Shown: in pieces, positions 703 through 38,272 of the stretch
How positions within the stretch are numbered: the stretch's first letter is position 1
Layout of the letters: each line of letters starts with the position of its first letter
Origin: Eledone cirrhosa
Taxonomy: Eukaryota
Assembly (NCBI GenBank): GCA_964016885.1
Contig: OZ024746.1
Span: forward strand, 91,512,001-91,576,000
Length of the DNA: 64,000 bases
Direction: 5' to 3'
Made by a program: the position numbers and the translations under genes
Notes under the pieces: model-generated
The model's input: the letters and a program-made list of their open reading frames with translations, nothing else
Databases searched by the model: none
Told to the model about the DNA's origin: nothing

Positions 703-1841
<1,139 letters not shown>

Positions 1842-3120: not shown

Positions 3121-3433
3121 ATATTAACAATATTAATAAATGGAAAATATCTTTACAAAACCATATTTATTTTATTATACCTATTTCAAGGGTACTAACA
3201 TTTAAATACGCTTTCGTCAGATAAAATATAATATTTAGTGTTAAGATAGTGACATACCTTCATGTGGTCTTAATGGGCTTATAACATTAAGACCACATGA
3301 AGGCATGTCACTATCTTAACACTAAATATTATATTTTATCTGACGAAAGCGTATTTAAATGTTAGTACCCTTGAAATAGGTATAATAAAATAAATATGGT
3401 TTTGTAAAGATATTTTCCATTTATTGTTAATAT
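3121..3433. mobile_element. Near-perfect hairpin (~150-bp arms, 9-nt loop) with a hammerhead in each arm (3334-3390 +, 3170-3226 -)
   Basis: Arms 3121-3275 and 3285-3433. Motif TTTTAT-CTGACGA-AAG C GTATTTAAATGTTAGTAC C CTT-GAAA-TAGGTATA-ATAAAA. A tail at ~3045-3120 matches the tail of the 32-kb element. Confidence 0.78.
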
Positions 3434-5417: not shown

Positions 5418-5768
5418 TAATTACATAATAAACAACACAATATAATTATTCCATTACCAAAGGTTTCACAAAACTAGACAATTCTTACAGAAACGTCTAG
5501 CCCGTTCATCAGATAAAATAATTATGTTTTGGTTTTATGTGTGTGTATGTATGTATATTTGTATGTGTGTATATATATTTTTTCCGTTATAAGAAGTTAT
5601 TTTAACTCAGCCTCACTTTCATTTTTAATAGATATCAATCTCAAATATTATATCCAAAACATAACTAATTTATCTGATGAACAGGCTGGAGGTTTCTGTA
5701 AGGATCATCTAGTTTCCTGAAACCTTTCGTAATGGAATAATTATATTGTGTTGTTTATTATATAATTA
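5418..5768. mobile_element. Inverted repeat (~115-bp arms) with a hammerhead in each arm (5447-5520 -, 5668-5739 +)
   Basis: Minus arm reads TATTTTAT-CTGATGA-ACGGGCTAGAC...GTCTAGTTTTGT-GAAA-CC TTT GG-TA-ATGGAATA (GUA cleavage triplet). The plus arm is a diverged copy. Confidence 0.72.
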
Positions 5769-31786: not shown

Positions 31787-31870
31787 AATACATATATATG
31801 TGTATCTGTGTATGTGTGAATATATATATATGCTTGTGTTTGTGTTTGTATATATATATATACATATATA

Positions 31871-32538
31871 TATTATTCAAAATATTAATAAATGAAGACG
31901 TTCACATAATCAAAATATATGTTTTATTATATATATTTCAGAGGTACTGAGTTGTTTTTCCAGTACGTCCTCGTCAGATAAAATACATGAATTGATGTAT
32001 GACATACTTCAACTGTCTTGATGGTTCAATTCCAGTTTTGGCAGTCTCTTAGTTTTCTCATGTATTCTTCTTTAGATGGTAAAGGTATATCTTTGAGAGA
32101 TGCAGAAACCCTAAAGAATTCCATCATTTATTAATTAATAATCTATTGCAGAAGAAACGCTCTACCTTCTGGGAGCTAAATATGACCAAAGATTAATAAG
32201 GTTCATTGATTACTCAATGAATATAGTTTTACAATAGATTAAAAGCACTCTACAAGAAAGTTTTCTGGAGTTATTTTCTGGAATTGAACCATCAAGACAG
32301 TTGAGGTATGTCATACATCAATTCATATATTTTATCTGATGAGGACGTACTGAAAAAACAGCACAGTACCTCCGAAATATATATAATAAAACATATATTT
32401 TGATTATGTGAACGTCTTCATTTATTAATATTTTGAATAATATTAATAACTCCAGAAAACTTACTTGTAGAGTGCTTTTAATCTATTGTAAAACTATATT
32501 CATTGAGTAATTAATGAACCATATTAATCTTTGGTTAT
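31871..32538. mobile_element. Compound inverted pLTR-like element with hammerheads at 32330-32391 (+) and 31922-31983 (-)
   Basis: 31871-32035 pairs with 32278-32442, and 32182-32274 pairs with 32446-32538. Motif TTTTAT-CTGATGA-GGA C GTACTG loop CAGTAC C TCC-GAAA-TATATATA-ATAAAA. Confidence 0.8.
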
Positions 32539-32627
32539 ACATATATATATTTGTAGTAAGGTTGCTTGGATGCATCCATAGGCAGTATGCCAGTTGAGCA
32601 CTCTATGCTCCTTTGGAGCAGAGTATG

Positions 32628-32906
32628 ATATGGAAAACGAAGAATCAGAGATGCATCGGAACACAAATTTATTGCATATTACAAATGTTTCTCCGCCGAA
32701 CAACTCATGGAGCGATCTGTTTGTGGATCAAACCTCTTTCCTAGAAAGAGGATCTGCTTCGAAATCACTAGACGTATCTGAGGAACTTGTGAATCCAGAG
32801 TTAGATTCAATCCACAAACAGATCGCACCTCGAGCTGTTCGCCGGAGAAACATTTGTCATACGTAATAAATTTGTGTTCTGATGCATCACTGATTCTTCA
32901 TTTTCC

Positions 32907-32910
<4 letters not shown>
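32628..32910. repeat. Inverted repeat (~100-bp arms, ~80-bp spacer), pLTR-like with a degenerate hammerhead
   Basis: atatggaaaa..gtttgtggat is the reverse complement of atccacaaac..ttttccatat. TCC..GGA-GAAA-CATTTG-TA and a downstream AATAAA are present, but the CUGANGA box is altered. Confidence 0.6.
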
Positions 32911-32945
<35 letters not shown>

Positions 32946-33158
32946 CAAGGTTTTTGATATAAAATCGTGTGTTGAAACAAATATTGTTATACTTGGCGAG
33001 GGTCCTGTTATAATATTGCCAGAAATAATAGCAGAACACACTCACTCTTTGGTTTGGGTTGGTTTTCACTTCTGTATCTTTTATATCTCCATAGTTAATT
33101 TATTTGGCAATCAATGTTTATAACACTTAAAAATACAAATATAAATATATATATAGTC

Positions 33159-33202
33159 TATCAAAGTTCTTTCGTCACACATCTGTGACATCATCAGTGT
33201 TA
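33159..33202 (-). ncRNA. Degenerate minimal hammerhead motif
   Basis: Minus strand TAACA-CTGATGA-T-GTCACA GATG TGTGAC-GAAA-GAACTT-TGATA, next to a TA tract. Stems I and III are imperfect. Confidence 0.45.
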
Positions 33203-33459
33203 CTATTATGTTTCCTCCCGTTGTATTGTAATGCCTACGCTATTTTTATTTTATTTATTTATTTATTCTTGCCTCTGTCTCTGCTTGCACATGCATTTGC
33301 GTGCGTGTTTCCTGTTTGGTGTGTGTGTGTTCGTGTTTGAGTGTATGTGTTTTTGTCTTCTATCTTTGTTCACTAGTGAAGTCTCTGCAGTTTCCAACTA
33401 TGAGACTTCATTGATAAGGTATAGATCAACCACCCGAAGCTATAGTAGAAGACAATTAA

Positions 33460-33680
33460 CCCTTTAGCATTTAAACTGGCCGTATCTGGCTAGAATTCTC
33501 TCACCTCTTTCTGTTCACACCGGATTTAACCAGCCACTCATACTGATGTTAAGGTATTGTTCTCAAAATAAATAATATTAAAATCTCATAGATTCAATAT
33601 TATGTGAGATAATTATGTGATATAAAGCCTTTAGCGTGGAAATATAATAGTAAATATAGAGTAATATAAATGGTAAAGAG
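33460..33680. mobile_element. Family A MITE inserted into a minus-strand tRNA SINE
   Basis: TTAA-bounded. The flanks gctatagtagaagaca.. and ..ttgccacac..aaacatcttaacc read as two halves of one SINE. Confidence 0.75.
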
Positions 33681-33839
33681 TTAAGTTGCCACACAACAGG
33701 ACTTCAACCCAAAATAACTGGTTACAAAGCAAACATCTTAACCAGTCAGCCATACCTATGTCTAACGTATTTTTATTTTAGTACATACCATATTTACAGC
33801 CAATATATATTCAATCCTGCAACAAGAAACAGTCATTAA

Positions 33840-34350
33840 CCCTTTAGCATTTACATTACTCTATATTTACTATCATATTTTCACGGTAAAGGCTTCATCT
33901 TACATAAGTATCTCACAAGTATCTCACATAATATCTCATAATATTTACATTACTGCGTATTTTCTATTATATTTTCATGGTAATATTGAATCTACGAGAT
34001 TTTTATAACAATGCCTTTGAGGGGCCGGTTCAAACAGAAAGAAGTGAGAGAATTCTGGCAGGATACAGCCGGTTTAAACAGAAAGAAGTGAGAGAATTCT
34101 GGCAGGATACAGCCGGTTTAAACAGAAAGAAGTGAGAGAATTCTGGCAGGATACAGCCGGTTTAAACAGAAAGAAGTGAGAGAATTCTGGCAGGATACAG
34201 CCGGTTTAAACAGAAAGAAGTGAGAGAATTCTGGCAGGATACAGCCGGTTTAAACAGAAAGAAGTGAGAGAATTCTGGCAGGATACAGCCGGTTTAAACA
34301 GAAAGAAGTGAGAGAATTCTGGCAGGATACAGCCGGTTTAAACAGAAAGC
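33840..34350. mobile_element. Family A MITE with a 44-bp subterminal segment amplified ~7 times
   Basis: Unit aaacagaaagaagtgagagaattctggcaggatacagccggttt at 34032-34349. Confidence 0.85.
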
Positions 34351-34355
34351 AGTGA

Positions 34356-34392
<37 letters not shown>

Positions 34393-34397
<5 letters not shown>

Positions 34398-34645
34398 TTT
34401 CCTGGGTATGTCTCTATTTATAAAACAAACTTTGTAATTTATATGAAGAAAGCATACCAAAGTGTTTTGGTACCCTTGAAATATATATAATAAAATAAAT
34501 ATGGTTTTATAAATATAGTTTCCATTTATTTAATATCATTGAATATTTACTCCTGGAACTTGTTGAGTGCTTTAAATCAGTTATAAACATTTATATTTAT
34601 ATTTGTTGGATTTCCAACAAATTAAATATCCCTTCTACTTACTTA
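34393..34645 (+). mobile_element. Solo copy of the hammerhead/pLTR family seen at 38 kb, core mutated
   Basis: ATGAAGA-AAG C ATACCAAAGTGTTTTGGTAC C CTT-GAAA-TATATATA-ATAAAA, then a tail matching 38130-38272. Follows a (TA)n run. Confidence 0.65.
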
Positions 34646-34649
34646 TATA

Positions 34650-35415
34650 TCATCATCATCATCATCATCATCACCATTTTACGCCCGTTCTTCCACGCTA
34701 GCATGGGTTAGACGGGTTGTCCTGTTGTGGGCAGTGTCTGGTCGGTTGACCATGCCTTGCTCATACAGAAACTGATTTGGCTTGATTTCTACAGCTGGAT
34801 GCCCTTCCTAACACCAACCTCATTTACAGTGAGTGCTGGGTGCTTTTTCGTGGCGCCTACACGTTCACTTTACAGTGTGGGCTGGGTGCTTTTTTGCCGT
34901 GGCACCTCCACAACCACCTTGCAGTGGGGGCATATTGTCTATATGCTTCAGCTTGTACCCATGGGAAGTCGGGTACTCTGTATTACTGCGTGACGCCAGA
35001 GGTCACGGTCGTGTGTCATCGCCTTTGAGAGGTGTAATTGGGTAAGGTCGGCTTTTATCACCTCATCCCAGGTCATCTTGGGTCTCCCCCACTCCGCGGT
35101 TTCCATCAACTTCTAGTGCTCTGCACCTTTTTATGCAGCTGTCATCCTTCATACACATCACTTGTCCATACCAACGCAACCGCCTCTCCTCCACACACCA
35201 TTTGATTCCTCTTATGCTCAGTCTCTCTCTCAATTCATTTATGCTTTGTCGTTCGCGTATATTACTATTACACATCCATCGGAGCATGCAGGCTTCATTT
35301 CTCTCTAATCTACGTAAGTCTTCCACCTTCAGCGCCCAGGTCTCACTACCATGTAACATCGCTGTTCGGATACACGCATCATACAGTCTGCCTTTCATTT
35401 TGAGGGAGAAGCCTT
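34650..35415 (-). mobile_element. RTE LINE 3' fragment
   Basis: KGFSLKMKGRLYDACIRTAMLHGSETW..LERNEACMLRWMC..RRLRWYGQV, then UTR and (GAT)n tail. Confidence 0.9.
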
Positions 35416-35710
35416 TAAATAAATATAAGGTGATACAGTGAAGAGGGCAGAAAACAAAAGACAAATTAATAAAGAGAAATCAAGATTTAAGATTGGAACT
35501 TGAAAGTCAGAAATCTGGTAAATTAAAAGTGTTTGTGTTATAGATGTTGGCCACAGGGTGACCTGTGACACTGAAATTCGTTTGTTTGAATTCATATGAC
35601 TCCAGTTCCCCAGTGAATTAACAACCCAACAAGGAACTGGGCATATCAGAGTATTGACAATATCATACACCTAAACAACATATGTACTTGTCTATACCAT
35701 ACTAATTCAA

Positions 35711-35765
35711 ACTGCCTGAAGAGGTCACAGCCAAAGATGGCTGTCACTGAAATATATATAGCAGT
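35711..35765 (+). ncRNA. Type-I hammerhead ribozyme motif, textbook fold
   Basis: ACTGC-CTGAAGA-GGT C ACAGCCA AAGA TGGCTGT C ACT-GAAA-TATATATA-GCAGT, followed immediately by AATAAA. Confidence 0.85.
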
Positions 35766-35955
35766 AATAAACGAAGCTAAATTTTAATCATTTGACTTTT
35801 ATTTAACTTTATTTTACACTACTCCGGAGTAACCAAACCAACCTGCGCACTTCGTCGAGTGCTCCAGCCTGCATACTGAGGTGTTGGTATACAACCAACA
35901 TAAACTCAAAATCTATATATATGTATATATATGTATATATATATATATACATATG

Positions 35956-36036: not shown

Positions 36037-36893
36037 AATTAAGTTAAAAATGTACATCCACATATGTATACTGAAATACTAGTATGCATATGAATACACA
36101 CACGTGTACATATGTAGATGTACCAAGTTTTTCACTGGACACTTTACTGTGAGTGTCCAGCTATTCTGTATGTAAACACACAGACAAACCGGTTTTTAGA
36201 GTTATACTGGTTTTCGAGGAAACACCTTTCCTCGACACTCACAGTAAAGTGTCCAGTGAAAAACTCGGTACATCTACATATGTACACGTGTGTGTATTCA
36301 TATGCATACTAGTATTTCAGTATACATATGTGGATGTACATTTTTAACTTAATTGTTTAAGCGTCAGTCATACAAAAGTGAGTTACAAACGAAACAAAAT
36401 TTAATTTCGTTTCGTTATTTGTTTTTATCGTCTCCGCTGAACCGGTACGTACTCACGCTCTATGCAAATTAGTCTGCCCACTACTAATTTTCATAGAAAA
36501 AGCATATAACGATATGTGCTTTTACGATTCTCTAGAAAGGCCGGAAGATAGGTAAATATTGCTGATGAGATGTAACAACATCGAAACTAGTCCAATATTC
36601 CTTGTCTGGCTTTCTGGAGAATAGAGGAAAGGTGTTTCCTCGAAAACCAGTATGACTCTAAAAACCGGTTTGTCTGTGTGTTTACATACAGAATAGCTGG
36701 ACACTCACAGTAAAGTAACCAGTGAAAGACTTGGTACATCTACATATGTATACGTGTGTGTATTCATATGCATACTAGTATTTCAGTATACATATGTGGA
36801 TGTACATTTTTAACTTAATTGTTTACGCGTCAGTCATACAAAAGTGAGTTACAAACGAAACGAAATTTAATTTCGTTTCGTTATTTGTTTTTA
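36037..36893. mobile_element. Inverted plus partial-tandem repeat cluster between (TA)n arrays (Penelope-like architecture)
   Basis: 36037-36233 is inverted relative to both 36234-36427 and 36624-36893; the latter two are direct copies. Hairpin CTGGACAC..GTGTCCAG precedes TGAAA, but there is no intact CUGANGA. Confidence 0.6.
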
Positions 36894-36895
36894 TG

Positions 36896-36965
<70 letters not shown>

Positions 36966-37904: not shown

Positions 37905-38272
37905 ATCAATGATATTAATAAATGGAAACTATATTTATAAAACCATATCTATTCTATTATATAAATTTCAAGGGTACCAAAACTTCGGTATGGTCTCATC
38001 AGATAAAATACAAAGTTTGTTTTATAAATATTGACATATCCAGGAAGGAGAACTTAATGGTTCAAGTTTTTCCTGGATAGTTTTTCCTGATGAGAGCGTA
38101 CCAAAGTTTTGGTACCCTTGAAATATATATAATTGAATAAATATGGTTTTATAAATATAGTTTCCATTTATTAATATCATTGATATTATACTCCAGAAAA
38201 GCTGTTGAGTGCTTCGAACCTGTTATAAATATATTTGTTGAATTACCAACAAATTAAATATCCCTTTTGCTT
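37905..38272. mobile_element. Inverted pLTR-like element with hammerhead motifs (37952-38008 -, ~38081-38137 +)
   Basis: Left arm 37905-38046 is the reverse complement of the right arm, which carries a deletion. CTGATGA-GAG C GTACCAAAGTTTTGGTAC C CTT-GAAA-TATATATA. Confidence 0.7.

Follow-up and report, generated by a model that had tools for sequence, protein, structure and literature searches.

Why would a predicted self-cleaving RNA that has spread through a genome keep one cytosine unpaired at a fixed height of a helix while the pairs around it change? The question is raised by a stretch of 64,000 nucleotides of Eledone cirrhosa (assembly GCA_964016885.1, contig OZ024746.1, positions 91,512,001 to 91,576,000 of the forward strand), hereafter called the window, in whose own coordinates the features below are given. 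A sequence-only reading had pointed out six hammerhead ribozyme loci in which stem II opens with three pairs, continues with an unpaired C opposite C or U and ends in a longer helix, and all six were found to read in this way. Our analysis places these hammerheads in Penelope-like elements (PLEs) of the Hydra clade and indicates selection on the unpaired C at position 10.4 (C10.4; the opposite base is 11.4); both the host and the constraint on the identity of the 5′ C had been missed by that reading. Ribozyme and host are both of known kinds; the variant itself is real, under selection and restricted to one lineage.

Hammerheads with an open position in stem II

The predicted fold at the six loci consists of the core CUGANGA, three pairs, C opposite C or U, a helix of 4–12 pairs, GAAA, a palindromic stem III (A-UAUAUA-U or A-UGCGCA-U) and UA, with stem I closing. 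The marks of a type I hammerhead (CUGANGA, GAAA, UH, three helices and ends lying in stem I) are thus present, except that the copy at 34431..34501 has lost C3. On the plus strand at 32330..32391, stem I is formed by 32330-32335 and 32386-32391, the core CUGAUGA occupies 32336-32342, stem II 32343-32373, GAAA 32374-32377 and the palindromic stem III 32377-32384, and the cut is predicted after 32385. Stem II opens from 32343 as GGA-C...C-UCC, with C32346 opposite C32370. An inverted partner of the same family lies on the minus strand at 31916..31989 (C31967 opposite C31943), and both are enclosed in a truncated inverted insertion with TA-rich repeat flanks (31870..32550), which other genomic copies match at 81–93%. 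The ACUGC/GCAGU family is represented on the plus strand at 35711..35765, in a copy of about 35555-35920; its core is at 35716-35722, stem II at 35723-35748 and the predicted cut after 35760, and stem II opens from 35723 as GGU-C...C-ACU (C35726 opposite C35745).

The other four loci are also on the plus strand. The member of the young family F1 at 1372..1450, with the stem III AUGCGCAU, opens from 1391 as AAA-C...U-UUU (C1394 opposite U1423) and matches, at 98–99% identity, the termini of full-length elements whose open reading frame (ORF) of 800 amino acids is intact. The member at 3328..3396 opens from 3347 as AAG-C...C-CUU (C3350 opposite C3369) and has an inverted partner at 3164..3232 (minus). 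At 34431..34501, a decayed member in a truncated copy of about 34396-34650 opens from 34450 as AAG-C...C-CUU (C34453 opposite C34474); its core C3 reads A and its position 5 is A.C. The member at 38075..38143, with a decayed stem I, opens from 38094 as GAG-C...C-CUU (C38097 opposite C38116), and its inverted partner at 37946..38014 (minus) is partly decayed. Rather than independent ribozymes, the six loci represent copies within related families of retrotransposons.

The check by covariance model that had been proposed was carried out with a model built on 22 family representatives. When run over the window, it returned nine strong members (54–80 bits, with 79.7 bits for 32330..32391), which are the six loci and the three minus-strand inverted partners. 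A search of Rfam with 31880-32900 and 35640-35830 gave no hammerhead match, even at an E-value of 10. For the whole window, the sole hammerhead among the Rfam matches listed was a sub-threshold HH9 on a different, fully paired motif at 36544-36615.

The 3.0-Gb genome was scanned with the pattern core-RNN-x-N10..30-y-NNY-GAAA-URYRYA-UA, in which x is 10.4 and y is 11.4. About 100,200 matches were obtained, against 0–23 with reversed patterns; a strict pattern gave 45,228+44,847 matches versus 0+0 when reversed, and 860 kb of blindly placed stretches contained 78 hammerhead-like motifs versus none in the reversed sequence. With controls this close to zero, the matches are not due to chance. Position 10.4 was C in 96,261 matches (96%), and the base opposite this C was C in 68,883, U in 23,840, A in 3,193 and G in 345; the 3,941 matches with another base at 10.4 include 710 with G and 654 with A. 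The mismatch had been described as C-C or C-U. The conservation of the C stands, but its partner can also be A, which occurs in amplified families, and the rule is that the 5′ side requires C while the 3′ side accepts any base unable to pair with it. A wider pattern, with an S-starting stem III, gave 440 matches, below its control of 1,542. Outside this genome, at least 117 matches were obtained in metagenomes, none of them with stems I and II.

Further groups comprise hammerheads with a CGAUCG stem III and a stem II of 35–116 nt (8,701 matches to a pattern that leaves position 4 free, the copies inspected being C.C or other Y.Y), those with a UGAUCA stem III and a mismatch at position 4 (3,592 matches), a UC-cutting family with the mismatch (2,211 matches) and a long-stem group in which U is opposite C at position 4 (3,001 matches). 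The window copy of the last group, at 32778, is the somewhat decayed long-stem-II hammerhead at 32766..32870 (plus), which belongs to another family with about 3,000 relatives, has U32788 opposite C32843 and scores weakly (16.5 bits) with the covariance model; N7 is mostly G in this family. Long stems II of 90–116 nt were also seen in Hydra hammerheads at L360, L065, L129 and L027, and the UC family forms a 1.32-kb tandem array at G000:C1:130.88 Mb.

The claim that the pairs around the fixed mismatch change in a compensatory manner was borne out. Double changes were found in 14 of 18 pairs (0 of 500 shuffles, a test that is inflated by relatedness), and helix pairing reached 88%, compared with 29–52% in slid controls. 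Across the 22 representatives, pair 10.3-11.3 was A-U in eight, G-C in seven and U-A in seven, and pair 10.6-11.6 was U-A in 11, C-G in nine and G-C in two. When matches were clustered at 84% identity and grouped by type of stem III rather than by position 4, with 26 matches fetched for G at 11.4 removed, position 4 was unpaired in 33 of 34 clusters (C.C 26, C.U 5, C.A 1, U.C 1), the remaining one being G-C. Positions 2, 3, 5 and 6 were paired in 31–33 of the 34, with three Watson-Crick types at position 3. Among other hammerheads, position 4 was paired in 40 of 44 clusters. Many clusters are single copies; in those of at least two copies, position 4 was paired in 0 of 20 in the mismatch group versus 14 of 15 in the others. 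A copy with G-C at position 4 (L034) is a point mutant of the 2,211-copy C.C family, in which C was read in about 94 of the first 100 copies.

The same picture was obtained from 86 blindly placed 10-kb stretches, where position 4 was unpaired in 38 of 41 model matches, the neighbouring positions were paired in 38–40 and the core columns intact in 38–41; the three matches with a closed position 4 represent two insertion events. Among wobbles, G.U outnumbers A.C (17 versus 6), which indicates that the sense RNA is the folded strand. The first stem II pair of the 34 clusters was G.U in 13, A-U in 12, G-C in seven and U.U in two, with no extra base. In most families with a paired position 4, this first pair is open instead (27 of 44 clusters).

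Where a change prevents copying, it is expected to show up solely as decay after insertion, at the rate of the catalytic C3; this rate was taken as a mutation floor, although its equalities are rough because the sites compared differ in sequence context. In the same CpA families, C10.4 has changed to U in 583 matches and C3 to U in 589, and the changes to A number 654 and 725, respectively. G at 11.4, which would close the pair, was found 345 times versus 367 for C3 to G, while U and A at this position reach the thousands given above. U.C and A.C mismatches at position 4 did not spread in the C10.4 group. Changes of C10.4 and the pair-closing G at 11.4 are therefore near the level of post-insertion decay, with G at 10.4 lying higher. 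In a flank-based tree of the 22 representatives, the neighbouring stem II positions change 3–8 times each and 11.4 five times; the rows were picked among mismatch families, so that the zero changes at 10.4 are no test. Since C10.4 changes as rarely as C3 and the flanking pairs have been swapped in a compensatory way across families whose proteins are 42–67% identical, selection on the unpaired C10.4 is well supported by the sequences, in line with the earlier claim of selection on RNA structure.

The host element and its ends

The intact 800-residue ORF (P0001) lies between paired hammerheads, has a C-terminal endonuclease region and the motifs RLRW, DKT, CNCRIKNKC and CNLCLNE, and is flanked by (TA)n. 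Its 56 best-scoring genomic matches are 98–100% identical and most of them are open. The Hydra clade is marked by (TA)n insertion and by a single ORF with a reverse transcriptase followed by a C-terminal GIY-YIG-type endonuclease, an RWK-like motif, DKT, CxCX5C and a CxxC before a conserved E (PMC8557442). The layout, motifs and flanks of P0001 fit this definition and identify the host as a Hydra-clade PLE; homologues were found at 29–38% identity, and searches of Pfam and PDB with P0001 gave no informative match. A Naiad host, which the (TA)n flanks and the reported 'core-only' motifs had brought to mind, was rejected: the Naiad clade is marked by an N-terminal endonuclease, a DKA motif and the lack of a canonical hammerhead, whereas here the endonuclease region is C-terminal and the motif is DKT.

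Related ORF fragments were found 1–2 kb upstream of the hammerheads in six further mismatch families and 1.6–4.2 kb upstream in the CGAUCG family, whereas attempts to link the U.C and UGAUCA groups to an ORF found none. The hammerhead follows the Hydra ORF at a distance of about 1–2 kb (in one family as much as 4 kb) or precedes it by a few hundred bases. Tandem and inverted hammerhead copies flank intact ORFs, and in F1 the ATG follows the cut site by about 214 nt. In the window, 32029..32127 (minus) encodes the first 33 codons of a Hydra-type ORF, ended by an internal junction (BLASTP to residues 1-25 of P0001, 40% identity, E 2e-6), which links the 32330..32391 copy to the protein-coding element. 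The closest pair of proteins among the mismatch families is 79% identical. A protein tree of 16 rows, one of which (F6) is only 13% filled, placed the mismatch families and one paired family in one clade with a Shimodaira-Hasegawa-like approximate likelihood-ratio support (SH-aLRT) of 91; holding the mismatch families together as one group was not rejected (approximately unbiased test, p-AU 0.40).

The motifs are predicted to cut only as dimers. The palindromic stem III A-URYRYA-U is too short for a monomer, as pair 74-75 leaves no loop, and double changes were found inside the palindrome, for which a self-duplex is predicted. In monomer folds of most intact copies, stem II formed with its open position, and stem I often mispaired with the stem III palindrome, as would be expected of a dimer-dependent motif.

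Two end distances behind the predicted cut recur, at +45/+135 in F1, about +50/+140-150 in related families and +60/+200 in the UGAUCA and CGAUCG groups (window 1438-1484; L141-L170). The tail between the two end classes is about 90–140 nt, above the 30–40 nt usually cited for PLEs. The Poseidon element of Anolis likewise has two reverse transcription start sites downstream of its hammerhead, giving a tail (PMC11167929). An AAUAAA, at 32386-32391 and 35766-35771 of the window and in most mismatch families, overlaps the predicted cut site or comes immediately after it; it could be a polyadenylation signal that the ribozyme splits or removes, or an A-rich docking strand.

Possible partners of C10.4

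What, then, might hold C10.4 in place? To the reading that we prefer we give a probability of roughly 0.45: in these type I hammerheads of the end repeats of Hydra-clade PLEs, predicted to cut only as dimers, the unpaired, near-invariant C10.4 of one large group of families would serve as a base-specific mark for the element's own protein. Two copies would pair via the 8-nt palindromic stem III, the reverse transcriptase-endonuclease would read C10.4 when binding and folding its RNA, cleavage would take place, and only RNAs with a free C would be copied efficiently. The partner of C10.4 would then be protein, not RNA. This is suggested by the fact that the identity of the C matters while any non-G partner serves, by the lack of a conserved RNA partner, by the restriction to one lineage and by the precedent of a Poseidon-clade hammerhead for which cleavage required the addition of the element's own protein (PMC11167929). 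A somewhat broader form, which we hold more tentatively, is that the extruded C10.4 acts as a twelfth conserved hammerhead base through which either the element's protein or the RNA of the dimer partner switches the ribozyme on.

Several observations weigh against the preferred reading. The main exception to the floor is G at 10.4, whose 710 matches are about twice the 367 expected; in the ACUGC family it reaches about five times the floor (34 of the first 100 of 257 versus about 17/33), and four of the first 100 G10.4 matches listed form a tiny fully paired family. This excess may come from CpG context, insertion or deletion artefacts or hairpin-templated correction, but low-level spread of closed copies is possible. 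Spread is also seen for Hydra families with a paired position 4, including one that falls within the same protein clade, and the long-stem group carries U instead of C at 10.4. For Poseidon, insertion was still seen with RNAs that lacked the first 19 bases of the ORF, a stretch that takes in some of stem II, and in vitro it was not blocked when the hammerhead was dead (PMC11167929). No footprint of the cut site was detected at the 5′ ends of F1 (0 of 16 junctions within 10 nt). Of 67 distinct F1 3′ ends, 38 lie at +43-46 and 25 at +131-136 behind the predicted cut, so that 63 fall into two TA-joined classes; the position of all 3′ ends beyond the cut implies that the templates were uncut tandem RNA or (religated) circular RNA. 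The first end class was found at +44-57 in all URYRYA families examined, and the paired sister family shares it at +44-55.

The sequence-only reading had proposed a tertiary contact in place of the usual loop 1-loop 2 interaction, and in its simplest form this was not supported. No conserved G partner for C10.4 was found within 25 nt on the 5′ side or 28 nt on the 3′ side, the best bases outside stem I reaching 13 and 15 of 44 clusters, and stem I itself varies between 3 and 12 bp, which speaks against a Watson-Crick tertiary pair in fixed register. A Watson-Crick G within stem I, by analogy with loop C of Schistosoma, was likewise not conserved, and a register-shifted pairing of C10.4 with G12 would give two or three pairs at most, by inspection, and was rejected. 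A single isosteric non-canonical class for C.C, C.U and C.A was considered and was not confirmed in the portion of PMC2673412 consulted; A at 10.4 did not spread. Unlikely, though the least so of the remaining alternatives, is a non-canonical contact by which C10.4 would stabilise the active fold and replace the loop 1-loop 2 interaction: a base triple, a metal site, or docking in the stem I groove of its own copy or of its partner. It would account for a C10.4 as fixed as the core C3, and canonical type I stems I and II dock at about this height (PMC4209133). Weak hints in the same direction are the pyrimidine-purine type of stem I pairs 2.1-1.1 and 2.3-1.3, seen in all 42 mismatch clusters versus 39 and 28 of 46 others, a purine at 10.5 in 44 of 44 mismatch clusters, and an AAUAAA at or directly behind the predicted cut in 31 of 44 (6.9 expected by shuffling) versus 5 of 44 others; all three associations are confounded by descent. 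However, no single base outside stem I is conserved, the length of stem I and the register of AAUAAA vary, and the minimal hammerheads of PLEs described in PMC4209133 lack tertiary contacts.

An effect of the mismatch as such seems improbable. As a hinge or brake, it would weaken stem II and either slow cutting or let a long helix bend, and any mismatch would suffice. Closing position 4 is predicted to stabilise stem II by about 4–6 kcal/mol in intact copies, three different partners are tolerated, and copying of the elements also needs RNA that extends across the cut site. On the other hand, U.C and A.C would be equally weak yet did not spread in this group, and other families have 7–9 continuous pairs in long stems. 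We consider it more improbable still that the C persists by descent from a chance ancestral state, or that a DNA signal overlapping it (a promoter, splice or endonuclease site) holds it fixed in place of RNA structure. This would fit the relatedness of the families, a single origin that the test above did not reject, and a number of independent source lineages in the tens and not 100,000, but both neighbours of the C and its partner have changed repeatedly, often by double changes, and a linear DNA signal would leave unexplained both the absence of G, and of no other base, at 11.4 and the free variation of the three bases that precede the C.

Neighbouring and known hammerheads, and the meaning of the variant

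Other hammerheads in the window have a paired position 4 and lie at 36554-36600, 5443-5524, 5662-5743, 4423 (minus) and about 2015-2050. Their stems III are CUAG, CCUUUGG and CAGCUG, and the minimal one near 2020 was spotted by eye. The hammerhead at 36562 lies between a long inverted repeat and its direct copy (36040-36340, 36620-36900), the usual inverted, truncated PLE end. Dozens of families with a paired position 4 exist in the genome, and a retrozyme-like tandem array at L307:279-8725 consists of units of about 420 bp, each with a CUAG-type hammerhead. A tandem repeat of about 47 bp, in seven copies, occupies 34030-34350, and a partial inverted relative adjoins it at 33480-33530.

PLE hammerheads with a palindromic stem III have been described before (PMC4209133, PMC6765202, PMC6155905). 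The Hydra PLE hammerheads of PMC8557442 share with ours the ORF motifs, (TA)n targeting, a type I hammerhead near the 3′ end, a short palindromic stem III and a varied first stem II pair; in File S2 of that paper, none of the 26 Hydra rows, Hydra-1_oBim included, has an interrupted stem II, whereas here the unpaired C is fixed and stem II often much longer. The minimal hammerhead ribozymes (min-HHR) of PMC4209133 likewise lie in pseudo-long terminal repeats, form covarying families whose truncated and inverted copies are dispersed, have a palindromic helix III and a longer helix II and are predicted to act as dimers. Their consensus, however, includes one more base behind A9 and a G10.1-C11.1 pair, neither of which is required here. 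Fig. S3 of that paper includes two rows of 56 with a 1x1 mismatch at position 4 (C.A in a sea urchin, U.U in a fluke), single examples that are not called conserved there, and helix II of the D. virilis motif is bulged (PMC4209133). Our motif would work like min-HHR but lies outside the published consensus. Lunse, Weinberg and Breaker are said to have described, in 2017, very numerous dimer-dependent type I hammerheads with a short stem III that are linked to PLEs.

Canonical type I hammerheads (Schistosoma Sm-alpha, HH9/HH10; Rfam clan CL00010) have the same catalytic core and topology, but their stem II of 4 bp carries a docking loop and their stem I is bulged, while here 3 bp and the mismatch are followed by 4–12 bp or more and no bulge base is conserved. 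Since stem II may consist of one or two pairs and may open with U.U (PMC3088659), three pairs should suffice for the core. The Poseidon hammerhead of Anolis is also from a PLE, but of another clade; the portion of PMC11167929 consulted reports no stem II mismatch and ascribes the effect of the protein to folding and not to a base contact. Other variants have been described (PMC7936874; retrozyme preprint 10.64898/2026.07.22.740005). The motif had not been recognised as a named subclass, in line with the literature examined, which names none, and our search, whose coverage did not extend to Lunse 2017 or to Long and Uhlenbeck 1994, found no description of a fixed C at 10.4.

PLEs retain hammerheads that scarcely cut in vitro, for reasons that are still open (PMC4209133, PMC8557442, PMC11167929). 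C10.4 lies outside the catalytic core and is constrained like a core base, and it thus provides a precise handle on whether these ribozymes are gated by a protein or by an RNA contact, or are retained for their shape and not for cutting. The most abundant hammerheads of this genome are missed by Rfam models and by descriptors that demand perfect stems. Should C10.4 prove to be such a twelfth conserved base, no recognition base of a natural hammerhead gated by protein would have been defined before it, about 100,000 natural variants would chart what is tolerated at the site, and the position-4 feature may have evolved more than once, in the C.H, long-stem C.C and U.C groups.

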